Shown piece after piece: positions 1,419-19,828 of a stretch of DNA of 24,450 nt; within the stretch, counting starts at the first letter, position 1; each line of letters starts with the position of its first letter. The position numbers were made by a program, and so were the translations under genes. The notes under the pieces are model-generated. The model did not search any database. It was not told the DNA's origin and worked only from the letters and a program-made list of their open reading frames with translations. Origin of the DNA: a virus (taxonomy: Duplodnaviria > Heunggongvirae > Uroviricota > Caudoviricetes); IMG/VR virus record IMGVR_UViG_2534681774_000030; one strand, given 5' to 3'.

Positions 1419-2489
1419 TTATTTGATTTCAATTTTGTCCCACTCCCTGCCTCTGTCATCACGATACTGTGATGCCATGGTGTCCGACTTATGTCCGAGA
1501 AGATGTTGAGCAAACTTATCGCTTATCTGCTTCTCATAGAGTCTTGCAGACAAACTGCGCAACTCGTGAAAGGTAGGCGGATCCCCTTCGAAGGAAAGAC
1601 CTGATGCTTTTCGTGCGCGCATAAAATACCTTGATACTGTGCCGGATGAAAGCGGTTCACGACGAGTAGATGCAATTATGGTTTCTCCGCCAAGAATCTC
1701 TTTGCATTTATCAAGTGTTTCCTTCATTGATATCCCGAGAGCATCAACATGCAATGTTGTAGGGATGGCAATTTTTACGCCTGTTTTGCTTTGTTCGACA
1801 TAAAGATATCCATCTACGATATCAGACCACTTCATTTCGCATAAATCACCAACTCGCTGCCCGGTAACAACAGCCAGTTCCATTGCAAGTCTGAGCCAAC
1901 ATGGTGATGATTCTGCTGCTTGATAAATTTTCAGGTATTCGTCAGCCGTAAGTCTTGATCTCCTTACCTCTGATTTTGCTGCGCGAGTGGCAGCGACCGG
2001 GTTTGTTGTTATATGGCCTTCAGCTATTGCCTCTCGGAATGCATCGCTCAGTGTTGATCTGATTAACTTGGCTGACGCCGCCTTGCCCTCGTCTATGTAT
2101 CCATTGAGCATTGCCGCAATTTCTTTTGTGGTGATGTCTTCAAGTGGAGCATCAGGCAGCCCCCTCCTTATTGCTTTAATTTTGCTCATGTAATTTATGA
2201 GTGTCTTCTGCTTGATTCCTCTGCTGGCGAGGATTTTTTCGTAGCGATCAAGCCATGAATGTAACGTAACAGAATTATCACTGTTGATTCTCGCTGTCAG
2301 AGGCTTGTGTTTGTGTCCTGAAAATAACTCAATATTGGCCTGTATTGCTTCAGTGATTGCTATCCTCCTGTCTCGGCCTAAACCAAACTCTTTAGCCGTC
2401 CTTGGGTCCCTGTAGCAGTAATATCCATTGTTTCTTATATAAAGGTTAGGGGGTAAATCCCGGCGCTCATGACTTCGCCTTCTTCCCAT
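1419..2489 (-). CDS. int: Lambda integrase (tyrosine recombinase)
   Basis: 356-aa ORF, recognised as lambda Int (MGRRRSHERRDLPPNLYIRNNGYYCYRDPRT...); adjacent to attL. Confidence 0.97.
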   Translation of the reverse strand: MGRRRSHERRDLPPNLYIRNNGYYCYRDPRTAKEFGLGRDRRIAITEAIQANIELFSGHKHKPLTARINSDNSVTLHSWLDRYEKILASRGIKQKTLINYMSKIKAIRRGLPDAPLEDITTKEIAAMLNGYIDEGKAASAKLIRSTLSDAFREAIAEGHITTNPVAATRAAKSEVRRSRLTADEYLKIYQAAESSPCWLRLAMELAVVTGQRVGDLCEMKWSDIVDGYLYVEQSKTGVKIAIPTTLHVDALGISMKETLDKCKEILGGETIIASTRREPLSSGTVSRYFMRARKASGLSFEGDPPTFHELRSLSARLYEKQISDKFAQHLLGHKSDTMASQYRDDRGREWDKIEIK

Positions 2490-2685
2490 TTCTGATCCTC
2501 TTCAAAAGGCTACCTGTTACTGGTCGATTTAAGTCAACCTTTACCGCTGATTCGTGGAACAGATACTCTCTTCCATCCTTAACCGGAGGAGGGAATATCC
2601 TGCATTCGCGCACCCATCGACGAACTGTTTCAAGGCTTCTTGGGCGTCGCTGGCGTGCGTTCCACTCCTGAAGTGTCAAGTACAT
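2467..2685 (-). CDS. xis: Lambda excisionase
   Basis: 72-aa ORF MYLTLQEWNARQRRPRSLETVRRWVRE..., recognised as lambda Xis; 3' end overlaps int start as in lambda. Confidence 0.96.
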   Translation of the reverse strand: MYLTLQEWNARQRRPRSLETVRRWVRECRIFPPPVKDGREYLFHESAVKVDLNRPVTGSLLKRIRNGKKAKS

Positions 2686-2710
2686 CGCAAAGTCTCCGCA
2701 ATTACACGCA

Positions 2711-2733
2711 AGAAAAAGCCGCCATCAGGCGGC
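2711..2733 (-). terminator. Hairpin with T-run (GCCGCC-tgat-GGCGGC then TTTTTCT on the minus strand) spanning the orf55 stop codon
   Basis: Perfect 6-bp GC stem followed by T5 when read on the minus strand; seen directly in the sequence. Confidence 0.35.
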
Positions 2734-2892
2734 TTGGTGTTCTTTCAGTTCTTCAATTCGAATATTGGTTATGTCTGCATGTGCTATCTGCGCCCATATC
2801 ATCCAGTGGTCATAGCAGTCATTGATGTTCTCTGCTTCGATAACTCTGTTGAATGGTTCTCCATTCCATTCACCTGTGACTCGGAAGTGCAT
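2725..2892 (-). CDS. Small hypothetical protein (55 aa) downstream of xis
   Basis: Manual translation on minus strand: MHFRVTGEWNGEPFNRVIEAENINDCYDHWMIWAQIAHADITNIRIEELKEHQAA; protein-like composition; I recall a 55-aa hypothetical gene at this position in lambda. Too short for the ORF track. Confidence 0.55.
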   Translation of the reverse strand: MHFRVTGEWNGEPFNRVIEAENINDCYDHWMIWAQIAHADITNIRIEELKEHQAA

Positions 2893-3134
2893 TTATCATC
2901 TCCATAAAACAAAACCCGCCGTAGCGAGTTCAGATAAAAGAAATCCTCGTCAGTGCGAGGATGCTGTTCATTGCTGCTATACACTTTTTTGCTCTCAACG
3001 TAAGCGGTAGCTCATTCTGTTGGGTTGGTGCAGTTGCTTTTAGGAAATGCTATTTACCCCTTAAACGTCGGCTGAAAGAGCTAAAATCCATGCAAAAAAT
3101 TTACGCAATTTTGTGTATTATTGTGCAGTAAGTA

Positions 3135-3737
3135 ATGAGCTATTTTCTGCGCAAAAAATGGATGGTAAATTTGTCCGGGGCAGGAAAAATTTTATGGACG
3201 CTAAACATGAAAAAAGATTCGTATCCTTATTTGATTTGCATGACAGTTTCAGGCCTGATCTTTATTTTCCTTTTCTTCTGGTGGCGGGCAGATATTTACA
3301 GGGTCACGTTTCTTAATCAGAGTATATCCCACTATTACATTCTGTTTAGCATGGGAATAGCTTTTCTGTTATCTCTGTTTTGGGTTAAGAAGGGGATAGT
3401 AAAACAAAGCGGCTGGAAGAGTCTGTCAGCATACCTTAAGGTTTATGCAGGGATGTGCATATTTGCTGGATTTTTTCTGATTATACCCCTTACAACACTA
3501 ACTTATTTTTTGCCTGGAGAGACATCGTCTTATGTTGCACCGTATCGGTATACTTCCGGTAGTTCAAAAAGTTGTTCTGGAGCTGAGGTGGATGACCCCG
3601 ATCTACATGAGAATATTCGCATTTGCTATCCGTATGGCAATTATGAGTACGATAATATTATCTATGTTGAAAAGAAAATTAATACATTAGGTGCGGTAGT
3701 AACATATGCACAGACCGCGCGTGATGATACTGAATGA
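3135..3737 (+). CDS. Hypothetical multi-pass membrane protein in the b-region, oriented opposite to the int-xis operon (start uncertain: 3135, 3162 or 3207)
   Basis: 200-aa ORF with several long hydrophobic segments (LICMTVSGLIFIFLFFWW, ILFSMGIAFLLSLFWV, GMCIFAGFFLIIPL); AT-rich; not recognised as a lambda gene. Confidence 0.6.
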   Translation: MSYFLRKKWMVNLSGAGKILWTLNMKKDSYPYLICMTVSGLIFIFLFFWWRADIYRVTFLNQSISHYYILFSMGIAFLLSLFWVKKGIVKQSGWKSLSAYLKVYAGMCIFAGFFLIIPLTTLTYFLPGETSSYVAPYRYTSGSSKSCSGAEVDDPDLHENIRICYPYGNYEYDNIIYVEKKINTLGAVVTYAQTARDDTE

Positions 3738-3771
3738 GATAGTATATAGCGGGCAAGTTTTAGTTAATTTA

Positions 3772-3808
3772 TCGAGGTAATATAATTTACCTCGACTCGT
3801 TTATTCTG
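3772..3808 (+). terminator. Hairpin TCGAGGTAA/TTACCTCGA followed by a T-rich tract, downstream of the membrane-protein gene
   Basis: 9-bp inverted repeat with 6-nt loop seen in the sequence just after the stop at 3737. Confidence 0.35.
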
Positions 3809-3947
3809 GTATTAATATTTCGCTTTACGATCGATTTTTATCTGATGATATCATGCGGTTTTCATATACTGACTTACTGTCTTTTCTCCGTTAGCGATTT
3901 TCTCCTGCTCAGCGATGATTTTATCTTTGGCTTCTAGTTAATTTCGC

Positions 3948-4169
3948 TCACTTCGAACCTCTCTGTTTACTGATAAGTTCCAGATCCTCCTGGCAACTTG
4001 CACAAGTCCGACAACCCTGAACGGCCAGGCGTCTTCGCTCATCTATGGGATCGCCACACTCACAACAATGAGTGGCAGATATAGCCTGGTGGTTCAGGCG
4101 GCGCATTTTTATTGCTGTGTTGCGCTGTAATTCTTCAATTTCTGATGCTGAATCAATGATGTCTGCCAT
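3948..4169 (-). CDS. DksA/TraR-family C4 zinc-finger protein (resembles lambda Orf73)
   Basis: 73-aa ORF with CxxC-N17-CxxC motif (CCECGDPIDERRRLAVQGCRTCASCQ); size and motif typical of the TraR/DksA C4 family found in prophages. Confidence 0.75.
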   Translation of the reverse strand: MADIIDSASEIEELQRNTAIKMRRLNHQAISATHCCECGDPIDERRRLAVQGCRTCASCQEDLELISKQRGSK

Positions 4170-4267
4170 CTTCCATTAATCCCTGAATTGTTGGTTAATA
4201 CGCTTGAGGGTGAATGCGAACAATAAAAAAGGAGCCTGTAGCTCCCTGATGATTTTGCTTTTCATGC

Positions 4268-4549
4268 TCACCGTTCCTTAAAGACGCCGTTTAACATGCC
4301 GATCGCCAGGCTTAAATGAGTCGGTGTGAATCCCATCAGCGTTACCGTTTCGCGGTGCTTCTTCAGTACGCTACGGCAAATGTCATCGACGTTTTTATCC
4401 GGAAACTGCTGTCTGGCTTTTTTGATTTCAGAATTAGCCTGACGGGCAATGCTGCGAAGGGCGTTTTCTTGCTGAGGTGTCACTGAACAAGCCCCATGTC
4501 GGCAAGCATAAGCAAACAGAATATGAAGCCCGCTGCCAGAAAAATGCAT
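4268..4549 (-). CDS. Hypothetical protein (93 aa) at the lambda orf61 position
   Basis: ATG-initiated ORF directly downstream of orf63 in the leftward operon; identity not confirmed. Confidence 0.5.
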   Translation of the reverse strand: MHFSGSGLHILFAYACRHGACSVTPQQENALRSIARQANSEIKKARQQFPDKNVDDICRSVLKKHRETVTLMGFTPTHLSLAIGMLNGVFKER

Positions 4550-4559
4550 TCAGTGGTTG

Positions 4560-4751
4560 TCATACCTGGTCTCTCTCATCTGCTTCTGCTTTCGCCACCA
4601 TCATTTCCAGCTTTTGTGAAAGGGATGTGGCTAACGTATGAAATTCTTCGTCTGTTTCTACTGGTATTGGCACAAACCTGACTCCAATTTGAGCAAGGCT
4701 ATGTGCCATCTCAATGCTCGTTCTTAACTCAACAGGAGATGCTTTGTGCAT
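4560..4751 (-). CDS. Lambda orf63-like protein
   Basis: 63-aa [26 protein letters not shown]..., recognised as lambda orf63. Confidence 0.85.
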   Translation of the reverse strand: MHKASPVELRTSIEMAHSLAQIGVRFVPIPVETDEEFHTLATSLSQKLEMMVAKAEADERDQV

Positions 4752-4912
4752 ACAGCCCCTCGTTTATTATTTATCTCCTCAGCCAGCCGCTGGGCTTTCA
4801 GTGGATTTTGGATAACAGAAAGGTCGGGAAATACCCAGCCTCGCTTTGTAACGGAGTAGACGAAAGTGATCGCACCTACCCGGATATTATCGTGAGGATG
4901 CTTCATCGCCAT
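4724..4912 (-). CDS. Lambda orf60a-like protein
   Basis: [32 protein letters not shown]..., recognised as lambda orf60a; immediately upstream of exo in the operon. Confidence 0.85.
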
Positions 4913-5583
4913 TGCTCCCCAAATACAAAACCAATTTCAGCCAGTGCCTCGTCCATTTTTTCGATGAACTCCGGCACCATCTCGTCAAAACCCGCCATGT
5001 ACTTTTCATCCCGCTCAACCACGACATAATGCAGTCCTTCACGCTTCATACGCGGGTCATAGTTGGCAAAGTACCAGGCATCTTTTCGCGTCACCCACAT
5101 GCTGTACTGCACCTGGGCCATGTAAGCTGACTTTATGGCCTCGAAACCACCGAGCCGGAACTTCATGAAATCCCGGGAGGTAAACGGGCATTTCAGTTCA
5201 AGGCCGTTGCCGTCACTGCATAAACCATCTGGAGAGCAGGCGGTACGCATACTTTCGTCGCGATAGATGATCGGTGATTCAGTAACATTCACGCCGGAAG
5301 TGAACTCAAACAGGGCTCTGGCGTCGTTCTCGTACTGTTTTCCCCAGGCCAGCGCTTTAGCGTTAACTTCCGGAGCCACACCGGTGCAAACCTCAGCAAG
5401 CAGGGTGTGGAAGTAGGACATTTTCATGTCAGGCCACTTTTTTCCGGAGCGGGGTTTTGCTATTACGTTATGAACTTCTGAAGCTGTGATGACGCCGAGC
5501 CGTAATTTGTGCCACGCATCATCCCCCTGTTCGACAGCTCTCACGTCGATCCCGGTACGCTGCAGGATAATGTCCGGTGTCAT
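4903..5583 (-). CDS. exo: Lambda exonuclease (Red alpha)
   Basis: 226-aa [41 protein letters not shown]..., recognised as lambda Exo. Confidence 0.97.
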
Positions 5584-6365
5584 GCTGCCACCTTCTGCTC
5601 AGTGGCTTTCTGTTTCAGGAATCCAAGAGCTTTCACTGCTTCGGCCTGTGTCAGTTCTGACGATGCGCGAATGTCGCGGCGAAATATCTGGGAACAGAGC
5701 GGCAATAAGTCGTCATCCCATGTTTTATCCAGGGCGATTAGCAGAGTGTTAATCTCCTGCATGGTTTCATCGTTAACCGGAGTGATGTCGCGTTCCGGCT
5801 GGCGTTCTGCAGTGTATGCAGTATTTTCGACAATGCGCTCGGCTTCATCCTTGTCATAGATACCAGCAAATCCGAAGGCCAGACGGGCACACTGAATCAT
5901 AGCTTTATGCCGTAACATCCGTTTAGGATGCGACTGCCACGGCCCCGTGATTTCTCTGCCTTCGCGGGTTTTGAATGGTTCGCGGCGGCATTCATCCATC
6001 CATTCGGTAACGCAGATCGGATGATTACGGTCCTTGCGGTAAATCCGGCATGTACAGGATTCATTGTCCTGCTCAAAGTCCATGCCATCAAACTGCTGGT
6101 TTTCATTGATGATGCGGGACCAGCCATCAACGCCCACCACCGGAACGATGCCGTTCTGCTTATCAGGGAAGGCGTAAATTTCTTTCGTCCACGGATTAAG
6201 GCCGTACTGGTTGGCGACGATCAACAATGCGATGAACTGCGCATCGCTGGCATCGCCTTTAAATGCCGTCTGGCGAAGAGTGGTGATCAGTTCCTGTGGG
6301 TCGACAGAATCCATGCCGACACGTTCAGCCAGCTTCCCTGCCAGCGTTGCGAGTGCTGTACTCAT
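5580..6365 (-). CDS. bet: Lambda Bet (Red beta single-strand annealing protein)
   Basis: 261-aa [51 protein letters not shown]..., recognised as lambda Bet; ATGA overlap with exo. Confidence 0.97.
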
Positions 6366-6370
6366 CCGTT

Positions 6371-6787
6371 TTATACCTCTGAATCAATATCAACCTGATG
6401 GTGAGCAATGGTTTCAACCATGTACCGGATGTGTTCTGCCATGCGCTCCTGAAACTCAACATCGTCATCAAACGCACGGGTAATGGCTTTTTTGCTGGCC
6501 CCGTGGCGTTGCAAATGACCGATGCATAGCGATTCAAACAGGTGCTGGGGCAGGCCTTTTTCCATGTCGTCTGCCAGTTCTGCCTCTTTCTCTTCACGGG
6601 CTATCTGCTGGTAGTGACGCGCCCAGCTCTGAGCCTCAAGACGATCCTGAATGTAATAAGCGTTCATGGCCGAACTCCTGAAATAGCTGTGAAAATATCG
6701 CCCGCGAAATGCCGGGCTGATTAGGAAAACAGGAAAGGGGGTTAGTGAATGCTTTTGCTTGATCTCAGTTTCAGTATTAATATCCAT
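6371..6787 (-). CDS. gam: Lambda Gam (RecBCD inhibitor)
   Basis: 138-aa [58 protein letters not shown]..., recognised as lambda Gam long form. Confidence 0.96.
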
Positions 6788-6885
6788 TTTTTATAAGCGT
6801 CGACGGCCTCACGAAACATCTTTTCATCGCCAATAAAAGTGGCGATAGTGAATTTAGTCTGGATAGCCATAATTGTTTGATCCAT
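6742..6885 (-). CDS. kil: Lambda Kil (FtsZ inhibitor)
   Basis: 47-aa product [47 protein letters not shown] taken from the internal Met of the 89-aa track ORF; overlaps gam by 46 nt and cIII by 32 nt as in lambda. Confidence 0.9.
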
Positions 6886-7018
6886 TTTTTGGGACTCCTG
6901 GCTGATTAAGTATGTCGATAAGGCGTTTCCATCCGTCACGTAATTTACGGGTGATTCGTTCAAGTAAAGATTCGGAAGGGCAGCCAGCAACAGGCCACCC
7001 TGCAATGGCATATTGCAT
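6854..7018 (-). CDS. cIII: Lambda cIII (FtsH inhibitor)
   Basis: Manual translation [54 protein letters not shown] (54 aa); below the ORF-track length cutoff. Confidence 0.9.
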   Translation of the reverse strand: MQYAIAGWPVAGCPSESLLERITRKLRDGWKRLIDILNQPGVPKNGSNNYGYPD

Positions 7019-7647: not shown

Positions 7648-8525
7648 TTATGACCACTTTTTGTTTGGGTTTCGTTGGTGAGCGTGGTTTACAGGATTAT
7701 TTGATATACCCCATAACTCTGACTCGCTTATCTCTACACGAGAGAAAGACCTGCTTTCTTTCAGTTCTTTTATAAACCTAGAACCTAAGATGACATCTAT
7801 TGTACCAGAAAGTTCTTGTAAAAGATCTATGTTTTTTCTGAGGAAGAAAATATCTTCTTTATATTTAATTTTTACATAGAATTTATTCTGTATTTTTAAT
7901 ATATCAAAGCATGGCAGATATCTATATCCCTCATATTTTCGCCACTGCTTAACAATTATAACATCTTTTTCATTTACTGCATTAATCAGCCCAAGACCAA
8001 GTACAGGTATGAATATTCTATTGTCTGCCGAAAGCGTACAATTATCACCACCAGGCAAATATGTATAAATCATGTCGGAATTTTTATACGCATCAACGAA
8101 TGCACGTAAGAAGCGTACATATTTTTGCCATCCGTTTATACCGAATTTACCATATAAGTATTCTTTATTTGTTAGAAGAAAACTATTTGTATCAGGATCC
8201 TTATCTACAGACCTGTCGATAAGATCTCCAACTACGTTTACAAAGTCAAAGACAGAGTTTAATAAGAACAATTGTCTTTCAGTAGGGCGAATTTCAATTA
8301 TGTAGCCAGGATGAAGACGATATTGCATCTGCTTACGAAGTATACCGAACGCTTGGGTCCGAGCATCTGAAAGCAACTTCTTGTCGCCATCGCCGTGAGC
8401 ATTGTTTCTAATAAAACTGATATAATTTGCTAATTTTTCAGCCTCTTTTTTGTGTTTTTTTCGCTCTGATGCTGAGTCTATTGGTTTTGGTATGGACTTG
8501 TAATCAATCTTCTTCATTACGTACC

Positions 8526-8529
<4 letters not shown>
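7648..8529 (-). CDS. Hypothetical AT-rich 293-aa protein at the ral/sieB position of the leftward early operon; candidate superinfection-exclusion or defence gene (probable true start at the second Met, 8517)
   Basis: Long uninterrupted ORF; its ATG overlaps the N stop codon (ATGA); a GAGGT Shine-Dalgarno precedes the second Met; Lys/Ile/Asn-rich composition contrasts with the lambda genes on either side; not recognisable as any lambda gene. Confidence 0.6.
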
Positions 8530-10616
<2,087 letters not shown>

Positions 10617-10621
10617 GTGGT
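10617..10621. repeat. Target-site duplication GTGGT (right copy) of the IS100 insertion
   Basis: See left copy. Confidence 0.8.
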
Positions 10622-10808
10622 ATTCAGCCAGCACCGTAAGGTCTATCGGATTCAGTGCGCTTTCTACTCGTGATTTCGGTTTGCGATTCAGCGAGAGAAT
10701 AGGGCGGTTAACTGGTTTAGCGCTTACCCCAACCAACAGGGGATTTGCTGCTTTCCATTGAGCCTGTTTCTCTGCGCGACGTTCGCGGCGGCGTGTTTGT
10801 GCATCCAT
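10617..10808 (-). pseudogene. N: N antiterminator, N-terminal fragment (codons 1-64), interrupted by IS100
   Basis: MDAQTRRRERRAEKQAQWKAANPLLVGVSAKPVNRPILSLNRKPKSRVESALNPIDLTVLAEYH matches lambda N, then reads into the IS terminus (CHERCNSDPH...). The two fragments minus one TSD copy sum to 324 nt, the length of lambda N. Confidence 0.9.
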
Positions 10809-10965
10809 CTGGATTCTCCTGTCAGTTAGCTTTGGTTGTGTGTGGGAGTCGTAGTCCTGAACGAAAACACCCCGCAATGGCACATTGGCAGCTAATCCGG
10901 ATTCGCACTTCCGGCCAATGCTTCGTTTCGTATCACACACACCAAAGCCTTCTGCTTTGAATGCT

Positions 10966-11159: not shown

Positions 11160-12512
<1,353 letters not shown>

Positions 12513-17703: not shown

Positions 17704-18663
17704 TTAAAAAAAGAAGGTGATTGCTCCATTTATAAATGAATAGTCATCCCCTGTCTTGAATTCTGATGTTACTTTATTAAATGCTAGTGTGAAGGCTACA
17801 GGTGCATACCCAATTGTTGCGCCAACTTGATATTCATCAACAGTTTTGTTTAGCGATACTGTTGTTTGTTTCGTCTGTATTGTTTTTCCTTCGAGAGTAT
17901 AGTTGCGATTGACATCTCGTCTTTCCATACCTGCAAAAATCTTGTATTTGAATCCGCTTGTATCGGACATATGCATTAAACCACGGGGAGCCAGCAGACC
18001 AAAGCCATTATCCGAATTGAAGGTTTTATCATTACCAATGGCAATGGTTGCGCCATATGCTACATATTGAAATAAGTTTCCAGTAACAGCAGAAACTTCA
18101 GGGTATAATCCAACATTAGCACCTAAAATATCCATACTTGGTGTCATGGATAGCATCCCTTTTACAGTATAACCGTAGCGATTCTCTATTTGATCATCCC
18201 ATGCATGATATTTTTCTGCCCCAATAATCTCATGAGCTTTATTTTGTACTTTCTGACCGCCTGCGTCGGGGCCAACAACACCTATGTCAGTACCTAATCG
18301 ATAGCGAATCCAGTCATTCGCAAGGGAGTTCCATTCAATACCAGTGTGAGTGTATGCACTAAAAGCTCTGTCTCCAGTTACGGCTGTGTTGTGTCTTTTA
18401 TTACTGCCTGATGGAGAGTAAATATCTTGCGCAATATGGAGAGATAATTGGCTCGAGTCTGAGATATCGTGGCTATATCCCAGAAATAAGCCTTGTGAGT
18501 AATCATCTCTGTTTTCATGTTTATTGCCATAAATATCATTAAGTATTGGTTGAAACTTCCCTGCATCATCATTTGCTAATGATAATGCAAGGCTGTTCGC
18601 GATAGCTGAACACGTGGTAAATGACAGAGCAATAAAGACGCCAGCGATGACACTTTTTTTCAT
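17704..18663 (-). CDS. Outer-membrane beta-barrel protein (319 aa, signal peptide, C-terminal Phe); possibly LpxR-like lipid A 3'-O-deacylase
   Basis: Signal peptide MKKSVIAGVFIALSFTTCSAIA; alternating amphipathic beta-strand pattern; C-terminus ...AITFFF; the 319-aa size equals what I recall for the Salmonella LpxR precursor; AT-rich flanks. Confidence 0.6.
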   Translation of the reverse strand: MKKSVIAGVFIALSFTTCSAIANSLALSLANDDAGKFQPILNDIYGNKHENRDDYSQGLFLGYSHDISDSSQLSLHIAQDIYSPSGSNKRHNTAVTGDRAFSAYTHTGIEWNSLANDWIRYRLGTDIGVVGPDAGGQKVQNKAHEIIGAEKYHAWDDQIENRYGYTVKGMLSMTPSMDILGANVGLYPEVSAVTGNLFQYVAYGATIAIGNDKTFNSDNGFGLLAPRGLMHMSDTSGFKYKIFAGMERRDVNRNYTLEGKTIQTKQTTVSLNKTVDEYQVGATIGYAPVAFTLAFNKVTSEFKTGDDYSFINGAITFFF

Positions 18664-19138
18664 ATGTTATTGTCTTCCTTTTTTTTGAATGGTGCGCGTA
18701 TTTTACATACATGAGTTTGTAATACAAGGTGCGTAATCAATATGATGTTTTATAATTGCGTGAGACAATTGATTTATTTGTTTTTTATTGTGGTTTTTAT
18801 TATCTTTTAATGTAACGGTGTTTTTATTAAGTGTGTTTGCGTGGTGTTTTATGTTTTTTATAATTTTTATTTTATTAAATTTAAATGCATTAGTAATGGC
18901 TATTCTATATAGCAATATAAGAACTGTTACAAAAAAAGGGGGGGCAATTACAGGTAGTTATGGATGATGAGTGAAACAGATATTGGAGAACCGGGGAATG
19001 AATGATGTCTGAGTCTTATATATCAGAACTCCTTCGCTGTCGCTGGGGGCTCCTGTGCTTATGTCGTTTCCCCGATTCGGTTTTGAACGATTACCGAATG
19101 TTGAAGAATTATGCCAAAATATAGAAAGGATTTACTGC

Positions 19139-19828
19139 ATGAATACCCAATATTTACAGTATGTTCGTGAGCAACTTATGGCAGCTACTGCTGACTTGAA
19201 CGGAGCAACGAAAGGCCAGCTCGAAGCCTGGCAGGAGCATGCACAATTTGATACTGGTACATACAAACGAAAGAAGCCGCGCATTCTGGATGTGGTAACT
19301 GGCAAGATGATTACGCTGGATAATACGCCGACTTCCGGTAAGCAGTCGTACGCAAAAGGTTCATCCATTGCTTTGGTCAGCCCGGTTGAATTCTCAACCT
19401 CTTCATGGCGCCGCGCGGTTTTGTCTCTCGATGAACATCAGAAAGCATGGTTGCTTTGGTGTTACAGCGAAAGCGTTCGATGGGGGCATCAGGTCACCAT
19501 AACGCAATGGGCATGGAGCGAGTTTAAAGATTTGTTAAGTAACAGAAAAATTGCAGGTAAGACACTGGATCGCCTGAAGACGTTAATCTGGCTGGCTGCA
19601 CAGGATGTGAAGAGCGAACTTGCAGGGCGTGAGGCCTATGAATACCAGACACTGGCATCATTGGTGGGAGTGACAACAAAAAACTGGTCCGAGACATTTA
19701 CTGAACGCTGGGTTGCAATGAAGCACATTTTTCTACAGCTTGATAGTGATGCTTTATTGCTTGTGACGAGAACACGTTCAAAACAAAAGGCAGCATTTTT
19801 ACAGCAAAATATTGCAAAACTGGATTAA
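19139..19828 (+). CDS. Candidate late-gene antiterminator Q of a non-lambda (phage 82/Qin-type) family; start may be upstream at 19055
   Basis: About 230-aa ORF in the position between the nin region and the lysis genes, followed within about 50 nt by an intrinsic terminator; the family assignment rests on position and size, not on recognised sequence. Confidence 0.4.
   Translation: MNTQYLQYVREQLMAATADLNGATKGQLEAWQEHAQFDTGTYKRKKPRILDVVTGKMITLDNTPTSGKQSYAKGSSIALVSPVEFSTSSWRRAVLSLDEHQKAWLLWCYSESVRWGHQVTITQWAWSEFKDLLSNRKIAGKTLDRLKTLIWLAAQDVKSELAGREAYEYQTLASLVGVTTKNWSETFTERWVAMKHIFLQLDSDALLLVTRTRSKQKAAFLQQNIAKLD

Follow-up and report, generated by a model that had tools for sequence, protein, structure and literature searches.

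A mobile membrane-protein cassette between xis and exo of a lambdoid prophage, with relatives in P2-like prophages

Between the int-xis genes and the exo, bet and gam genes of one lambdoid prophage, a single gene is read on the forward strand. What is this gene, with what did it arrive, and what might it do in the lysogen? We addressed these questions in a DNA stretch of 24,450 nucleotides (IMG/VR virus record IMGVR_UViG_2534681774_000030), hereafter called the window, in which the open reading frame (ORF) lies at 3135-3737 (+), flanked by the 55-codon ORF55 and a TraR/DksA-type gene. Our analysis indicates that the locus is very probably a stand-alone, horizontally mobile prophage moron, consisting of a sigma-70 extended -10 promoter and one gene that opposes the pL/int-xis unit and encodes an inner-membrane protein of 176 amino acids. 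What the protein does is a matter of graded probabilities, which we weigh below.

The insert, its gene and its relatives

The gene and the segment that carries it are placed as follows.

2989-3934: AT-rich insert of about 946 bp, standing in place of the lambda ea8.5/ea22 interval; placed from megablast ends, the lambda gene map and the GC profile
3207-3737 (+): coding sequence for 176 amino acids, its start placed by homologues

A first-pass annotation, made from the sequence alone, had described an AT-rich segment in place of ea8.5 and ea22, and the boundaries agreed with this description. In a megablast comparison with a phage collection, the sequence shared with non-434-type lambdoid phages, lambda included, stopped at 2988 and restarted at 3935/3936. 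The gene map of lambda has ea8.5 and ea22 in the corresponding interval. The GC content was 0.34-0.41 over 3001-3900, against 0.45-0.52 on either side. Some phages have the gene while close relatives that share the sequence on both sides of it lack it, and its base composition departs from that of the neighbouring genes; both are properties expected of a moron. The label "b-region" that had been attached to the site was abandoned, since the site belongs to the xis-exo part of the pL operon and the classical b region lies beyond att. Over positions 2900-3950, the identity was 100% with phage 434 (OL657226/OL657227) and 98.8-99.9% with phages 2B8 and mEp332. At least 80% of this 1051-bp query was contained in 905 of 5426 complete E. 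coli genomes, and the protein was encoded in only 5 of 50,697 phage records.

The forward gene opposite int-xis, as originally proposed, stood up well. By our own estimate, the chance of a 200-codon open frame at 38% GC is about 1e-6. Compared with alleles of 78% and 70% identity, the proportion of synonymous differences (pS) was 0.60-0.72 and the ratio of non-synonymous to synonymous change (dN/dS) was 0.08-0.15, and the 176-residue protein is under strong purifying selection. Its start has been annotated in different places. In the 434 record, CPT_434_36 ("putative membrane protein") is a coding sequence from TTG 3171 with 188 amino acids, and RefSeq WP_000120063.1 ("hypothetical protein") runs from ATG 3135 with 200 amino acids. 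Diverged homologues (42-78% identity, 169-180 amino acids) all start with MKK(D/Y)SYPYL, and one of them has an AAGGAGG ribosome-binding site 7 nt 5' of the corresponding ATG; we therefore took ATG 3207 as the true start. The starts at ATG 3135, ATG 3162 and TTG 3171 were rejected, as they lie within or upstream of the conserved -10 element described below and the N-terminal extension is not conserved. Hence, of the predicted multi-pass membrane protein of roughly 180-200 amino acids, the membrane character was retained, with three predicted transmembrane (TM) helices, and the length of 200 amino acids was corrected to 176.

Two further candidate frames were set aside. The 56-codon ORF at 2961-3131 (+), annotated in 434 as CPT_434_35 ("putative membrane protein"), is probably no gene; it straddles the 2988/2989 junction, had no PHROG match and was not conserved in the E. 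coli P2-like copy introduced below. The "ORF-22+" of record M60848 is a partial ORF in another reading frame and was not accepted as the gene of interest. Rfam returned no RNA family in 2600-4300.

We then considered the family as a whole. Among 5.8 billion proteins searched, 74 were relatives, and a profile search run exhaustively over 1.8 billion representative proteins gave 61 matches only. Fifteen of these 61 were inspected in full and had 166-202 amino acids with the same layout, save one repeat protein of 3074 amino acids (P0124), whose match to the cysteine hairpin looks spurious. Named members came from Escherichia, Shigella, Salmonella, Klebsiella, Enterobacter, Cedecea, Erwinia, Proteus, Providencia and Pseudomonas. 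The earlier statement that the gene was not recognisable was fair, as no curated family matched it, and the homology and structure searches that had been suggested as a check produced no family in Pfam, NCBIfam, PADLOC, PDB or BFVD. The protein itself had nothing significant in Pfam or NCBIfam, and none of 22 family members had a significant Pfam match; the best E in a profile search of all PDB sequences was 0.5; BFVD gave no match at E <= 1e-3 and a weak match to an NfeD-like protein. PHROG 1416 ("unknown function") matched residues 113-200 of the 200-residue frame, that is, the C-terminal half only. In the literature we found no paper naming WP_000120063 and no functional study of the family.

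The closer relatives lie in P2-like prophages. Single-gene homologues were found between replication gene A and portal gene Q in Salmonella (70% and 58% identity), Klebsiella michiganensis (55%) and E. coli (78%); the E. coli copy is called L026 here, and L004 and L005 are other P2-like copies. The gpA-gpQ interval, which is occupied by old and tin in P2, has been demonstrated by experiment to be an anti-phage hotspot (Rousset et al., 2022; PMC9122126). In Table S5B of that study, which covers this hotspot in P2-like prophages of E. coli, "system 4" is listed as a protein of 181 amino acids with no Pfam domain and "3 TM", present in 470 of 18,150 loci, the fourth commonest entry in the P2-hotspot catalogue. 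The system 4 protein was 52% identical to the window protein over 168 amino acids (BLASTP, E = 3e-57). Full-length homology, the same layout of three TM segments and a C-terminal domain, and shared invariant residues place the window protein in this "3 TM" family. As a separate observation, the homologue in the Klebsiella P2-like hotspot (L018/L019/L020) sits beside a pair of genes (2281-5623, -) for proteins of 790 amino acids (weak AAA_16 match) and 279 amino acids (no domain), which is a possible defence system.

The upstream region, the hairpin and the ea22 remnants

Around the coding sequence, the following elements were distinguished.

3074-3206 (+): conserved upstream regulatory region, about 135 nt long and with about 80% identity to the DNA that precedes the L026 gene
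3111-3128 (+): 10-nt direct repeats TTGTGTAtta / TTGTGCAg, annotated in OL657226 as "CII binding site" (TTGY-N6-TTGY, 3111-3124)
3143-3148 (+): -35-like TTTTCT, 17 nt before the -10 element
3163-3171 (+): extended -10 element TGgTAAATT, with a predicted transcription start near 3177-3180
3772-3795 (+): hairpin with a 9-bp stem and a 6-nt loop, 35 nt past the stop codon; candidate weak intrinsic terminator
3851-3951 (-): ea22-like gene remnants at the right edge of the insert, read from the sequence

The window aligned with L026 from about 3074 to about 3943. In contrast to the identity of the upstream region, the synonymous sites of the coding sequence were only about 40% identical between the two copies (pS 0.60), which argues that the upstream region is under constraint. 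Because its conservation goes far beyond that of the synonymous sites, the cassette appears to bring its own promoter. The motif TG(G/A)TAA(A/T/G)TT was kept in 7 of 8 aligned loci, including the P2-like prophages and a Cedecea chromosomal copy, and is well placed as an extended -10 element. The -35-like TTTTCT was kept in the window, L026, L004 and L005; it agrees with the consensus at 3 of 6 positions and stayed below the threshold of a consensus promoter scan. From this pattern we infer a promoter of the extended -10 type, and with it expression in the repressed lysogen. Since the gene opposes the pL/int-xis unit, the cassette would be transcribed from its own promoter in a repressed prophage, and in lytic growth transcription from pL would run against it and could silence it by overrun or antisense RNA.

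The CII annotation lies directly upstream of the gene, and it raises the alternative that this is a gene of the phage life cycle, either controlled by CII in the establishment of lysogeny or holin-like and active in lysis, and not a conversion gene. Class I holins have three TM helices, a feature that the window protein shares. The repeats themselves tell against control by CII. Those of the TTGTGCA type are present in two copies in the window and in two to three copies in L004, L005 and L026 (three in L005), at loci where no lambdoid genes were seen, and the exact repeat dyad is out of register in L026. Furthermore, they lie at about -50 to -65 from the predicted start and do not straddle the -35 element, and TTGYN6TTGY is common by chance, with about 6 occurrences expected per 48-kb genome by our own estimate. 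For these reasons a CII-dependent promoter was judged unlikely; AGCTAT (3138-3143), an alternative -10 for such a promoter, was not conserved. The position of the gene is likewise not that of a lysis gene. It stands between xis and exo on the strand opposite the early-left operon, and not beside an endolysin in a lysis cassette under late-promoter control; Q lies at 19055-19828 and the late region is about 15 kb away. Moreover, the gene is missing from most lambdoid phages and is therefore dispensable, and the same cassette with its repeats occurs in P2-like loci whose replication and structural genes are unrelated. A life-cycle role is thus highly unlikely. We gave similarly little credence to the idea of an inducible "sentinel", in which the upstream repeats would serve as binding sites for an envelope-stress regulator or for a CII-type activator supplied by an incoming lambdoid phage, so that infection would switch on a protein that shuts DNA entry.

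Downstream of the gene, the hairpin had a folding free energy (dG) of -12.9 kcal/mol with z = -3.45 relative to shuffled sequences, and it was picked up by a terminator scan. Its tail, CUCGUUUAUUC, is a poor U-tract, and the homologous hairpin of L026 was weaker (dG -8, z = -0.6). The first-pass annotation had taken the AT-rich upstream region and the hairpin as marks of an independent unit. The precise bounds, the base composition, the occurrence of the cassette in the P2-like hotspot and the conserved upstream region agree with that view; the terminator is moderately supported, owing to its U-tract and the weak L026 counterpart.

At the right edge of the insert, two pieces of an ea22-like gene were read on the reverse strand. 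The first, MSEIN* (3951-3934, -), has a GTG start that overlaps the stop codon of the TraR-like gene, and the second is an out-of-frame C-terminal piece, LEAKDKIIAEQEKIANGEKTVSQYMKTA* (3937-3851, -). The ea22 gene of lambda aligns from window position 3936. In L026, a longer, frameshifted ea22-like (pseudo)gene that starts MSEINYQALRE... is found at 6622-7004 (-), in the same relative place, which points to a joint movement of the membrane gene and the ea22 fragment. This arrangement suggests that the two travelled together between lambdoid and P2-like phages and hints at the route of recombination. The window cassette resembles system 4 in being a single gene with a common upstream promoter region and an ea22-like fragment downstream, and the closer P2-borne alleles are 70-78% identical to it; the difference is in the phage family and the locus, a cos-proximal hotspot in one case and the xis-exo interval in the other.

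Predicted architecture and possible functions

To what kind of protein does this cassette give rise? An AlphaFold2 model built with a 22-sequence alignment had a mean predicted local distance difference test score (pLDDT) of 86 over the full length, and the C-terminal domain modelled by itself reached 90. The model contains three helices (5-29, 38-61 and 70-101) and then five strands within 105-171, and the hydropathy profile gave the same three TM segments. A strand at 34-36 in loop 1 (invariant T-F-L) joins the C-terminal sheet in the model. The C-terminal domain and this one strand are predicted to form a compact, acidic, OB-like barrel of about 85 residues. Lysine and arginine together number 2 in the N-terminus and 5 in loop 2, which has no acidic residue; the C-terminal domain has 6 of them against 12 aspartates and glutamates and so a net charge of -6. 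Under the positive-inside rule, the cytoplasmic parts would be the N-terminus and loop 2 and the periplasmic parts loop 1 and the barrel, so that the model describes an inner-membrane protein with its barrel on the periplasmic face.

The C-terminal beta-barrel domain (105-171, about 70 amino acids) is the most conserved part of the protein, with a dN/dS of 0.07 between the window and L026 copies. In the family alignment, the motifs CSGA, ICYP and EKRSNxLG are conserved from E. coli to Pseudomonas. Cys123 and Cys140 are invariant and keep a constant C-x16-C spacing, also in the homologues of Pseudomonas, Proteus and Providencia. Two such cysteines fit a periplasmic disulfide bond, and the barrel is probably disulfide-bonded.

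Among the functions considered, we tentatively favour that of a superinfection-exclusion or envelope-level anti-phage protein, an assignment by analogy that we hold at somewhat less than even odds. It is favoured because the gene was repeatedly captured at sites used for genes of competition between phages, is partner-free, and parallels P22 SieA in size and in the number of TM helices. In the proposed mechanism, the periplasmic domain, held at the inner membrane, would bind a conserved envelope component or the incoming DNA-delivery conduit. Foreign phage DNA would then be stopped from crossing the periplasm or the inner membrane, as with P22 SieA, T4 Imm and HK97 gp15, and the lysogen and its resident prophage would thereby be protected. 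A block to entry fits better than the sensing of phages in the cytoplasm, since the only soluble domain is predicted to be periplasmic.

SieA of P22 is an inner-membrane protein of 162-164 amino acids with three TM helices that blocks DNA injection, and it has a conserved cytoplasmic motif, FxRYPxEAxxFNK (PMC10883804). The likeness is a hypothetical functional parallel: like sieA, the window gene would be a prophage-expressed single gene with its own promoter, and its product is likewise predicted to belong to the inner membrane, both proteins having about 160-176 amino acids and three predicted TM helices, the size and TM count of the window protein resting on AlphaFold2 helices and hydropathy. 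In contrast, the conserved part of the window family is the predicted periplasmic beta-barrel, and SieA is encoded solely between genes 16 and 9 of P22-like phages. Imm and Sp of T4, gp15 of HK97, SieB of lambda and P22, and Cor/Llp are similarly small membrane proteins or periplasm-facing proteins that guard the host, but differ in TM number and domain structure.

Several observations weigh against exclusion. A comparison by hhalign of the family profile (22 sequences) with P22 SieA gave a probability of 0.2% over only 10 aligned columns; this amounts to no detectable homology, and a SieA homologue was rejected. The motif FxRYPxEAxxFNK was not seen in the family alignment. There was no match to a Pfam exclusion family, no PHROG match to Imm, Sp, gp15, SieB or Cor/Llp, and no PADLOC defence model (PADLOC-DB v2) at E <= 1. 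The tables of PMC9122126 give the homologue as a catalogue entry (S5B) only, and we did not find it in the set of systems that were put to a test there. Some of the cargo of the P2 hotspot has no role in defence, for example partition systems and toxins (PMC9122126), and location in this hotspot is therefore weak evidence when taken alone. Distant homologues (42-56% identity, or found by profile only) are chromosomal in Enterobacter, Klebsiella sp., Cedecea, Proteus and Pseudomonas, where they lie in ordinary or variable non-prophage regions among metabolic and regulatory genes, several of them beside LysR regulators, GGDEF genes or phosphotransferase-system genes. Conservation within the protein is highest in the domain predicted to face the periplasm, which is not expected of an arms race with variable phage proteins; it indicates a conserved host ligand, and such a ligand is equally compatible with a physiological role. 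Finally, both the topology and the disulfide bond are predictions. It was the non-defence hotspot cargo, the chromosomal homologues, the conserved domain and the prediction-based footing that limited our confidence in exclusion.

The same observations bear on a second explanation, namely that the protein is a factor of host physiology or lysogenic conversion unrelated to phages. Its periplasmic OB-like domain would have a conserved envelope component as its ligand, perhaps a sensor kinase, a protease/SPFH complex, or part of the machinery of Tol/Ton or of peptidoglycan, and thereby alter stress signalling, permeability or fitness in the gut. The chromosomal copies outside prophages and the motifs that are invariant from E. 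coli to Pseudomonas are in keeping with such a role, and the prophage of the window has other conversion cargo, for example an LpxR-like gene. In addition, three TM helices followed by a small C-terminal barrel loosely recall short NfeD-type proteins, to which the weak BFVD match also points. Proteins of this kind (YbbJ/YuaF type) have N-terminal TM helices and a C-terminal OB-fold, to be compared here with three TM helices and a five-stranded barrel of about 75 amino acids. However, neither NfeD nor any other Pfam family matches the window protein; the Pfam domain PF01957 and an adjacent SPFH partner gene, by which NfeD proteins are recognised, were both absent, and no partner gene recurred beside the homologues in any locus examined. 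Nor does host physiology specifically explain the repeated capture at phage hotspots known for genes of competition between phages. We consider it a possible but somewhat unlikely explanation.

Size and membrane topology would also fit an orphan immunity or resistance protein, acting against an envelope-directed toxin such as a pore-forming colicin, a microcin, or a membrane effector of contact-dependent inhibition or of a type VI secretion system, and aiding the lysogen in competition. Immunity proteins against pore-forming colicins are typically inner-membrane proteins of 110-180 amino acids with three TM helices. A single gene with a putative promoter of its own agrees with this as well, and in Proteus the homologues share a variable islet with an Imm33-like immunity gene, 4.5 kb away. 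On the other side, no toxin gene was adjacent in the loci examined, save an unrelated YafO in one locus, and no colicin-immunity family of Pfam matched. Immunity proteins are, moreover, usually specific and variable, whereas the periplasmic domain here is strongly conserved, and we regard this explanation as improbable.

The location in a defence hotspot brings in a further alternative, an abortive-infection effector in the membrane that would be inert until infection and would then oligomerise or open, depolarising and killing the cell before phage release. Suicide effectors are frequent among the TM proteins that defence loci encode (discussion in PMC9122126). Yet the gene is always single, with no sensor partner, and its sole soluble domain, being predicted periplasmic, could not sense phage products in the cytoplasm. 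The TM helices contain few polar residues able to line a pore, and the high prevalence and strong purifying selection suggest a protein that is not toxic. Taken together, these points make abortive infection very improbable, and superinfection exclusion remains the function that we prefer, at the tentative level given above.

Prophage context and significance

The cassette sits in a lambdoid prophage adjoining ybhC (1-1284, -), which in E. coli is the neighbour of the lambda attachment site. The neighbouring genes are the following.

1419-2489 (-): int
2467-2685 (-): xis
2725-2892 (-): ORF55
2943-2962 (-): t-L4 (record M60848), a leftward terminator close to the insert but not part of it, given as context only
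3948-4169 (-): TraR/DksA-type zinc-finger gene
4903-5583 (-): exo, with orf61/63/60a-like genes between the zinc-finger gene and exo
5580-6365 (-): bet, followed by gam (-)
10557-10940: N (Pfam match)
11561-12193: cI-like repressor (Pfam match)
19055-19828: Q (Pfam match)

The closest known arrangement is that of CPT_434_36 in phage 434 (also in 2B8 and mEp332), where the gene has the same position between ORF55 and the TraR-like gene and differs in its annotated start. The prophage of the window is a mosaic and not 434 itself: it is without ORF114 of 434, which lies in the xis-ORF55 interval, and other modules are present. An IS21-family element at 8729-10530 (-), with an IstA-like transposase (9508-10530) and an IstB-like ATPase (8729-9511), lies inside the early-left operon between N and an ORF of 293 amino acids (7648-8529). 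It probably disrupts expression of the pL operon, and for this reason the prophage may be defective.

Three other genes of the window deserve mention. The 293-amino-acid ORF at 7648-8529 (-) lies just past N in the direction of pL, in very AT-rich DNA (GC about 0.33). It had no match in Pfam or PADLOC; its last 20 residues (...HAHQRNPNKKWS) match the C-terminus of Nun-like transcription-termination (exclusion) factors (PHROG 5632, E = 7e-5), and it may be an exclusion protein that is related to Nun and has a large additional N-terminal portion. Just upstream of Q and against its flanking genes, an LpxR-like gene for an outer-membrane lipid A deacylase (17704-18663, -; Pfam E = 7e-40) is a candidate for a second lysogenic-conversion moron in this prophage. 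Downstream of Q, a protein of 617 amino acids (21299-23152, +) carries the domains DUF1737, SASA (sialate O-acetylesterase-like) and DUF6645, and we presume a resemblance to the NanS-p esterases of Stx-type prophages.

In summary, what was known before is that the gene had been annotated, without characterisation, and that its family had been catalogued once as an anonymous "3 TM" entry. Our results add a corrected gene model, a predicted fold and topology, the family link between 434 and the P2 hotspot, and evidence for the joint travel of promoter and gene. The family is abundant, with a lambdoid-type copy in about one-sixth of complete E. coli genomes, and neither solved structures nor predicted viral structures gave a strong match to its confidently predicted fold. 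The cassette moved, putative promoter included, between two unrelated lineages of temperate phages, each time into a site for accessory cargo. Phage 434 is a classical laboratory phage and grows on K-12, and the presence of the cassette in it makes the proposed function directly testable. If the protein does act in exclusion, it would represent a new structural class, with three TM helices and a periplasmic OB-like barrel, and its conserved periplasmic domain would indicate a conserved host step in the entry of phage DNA.

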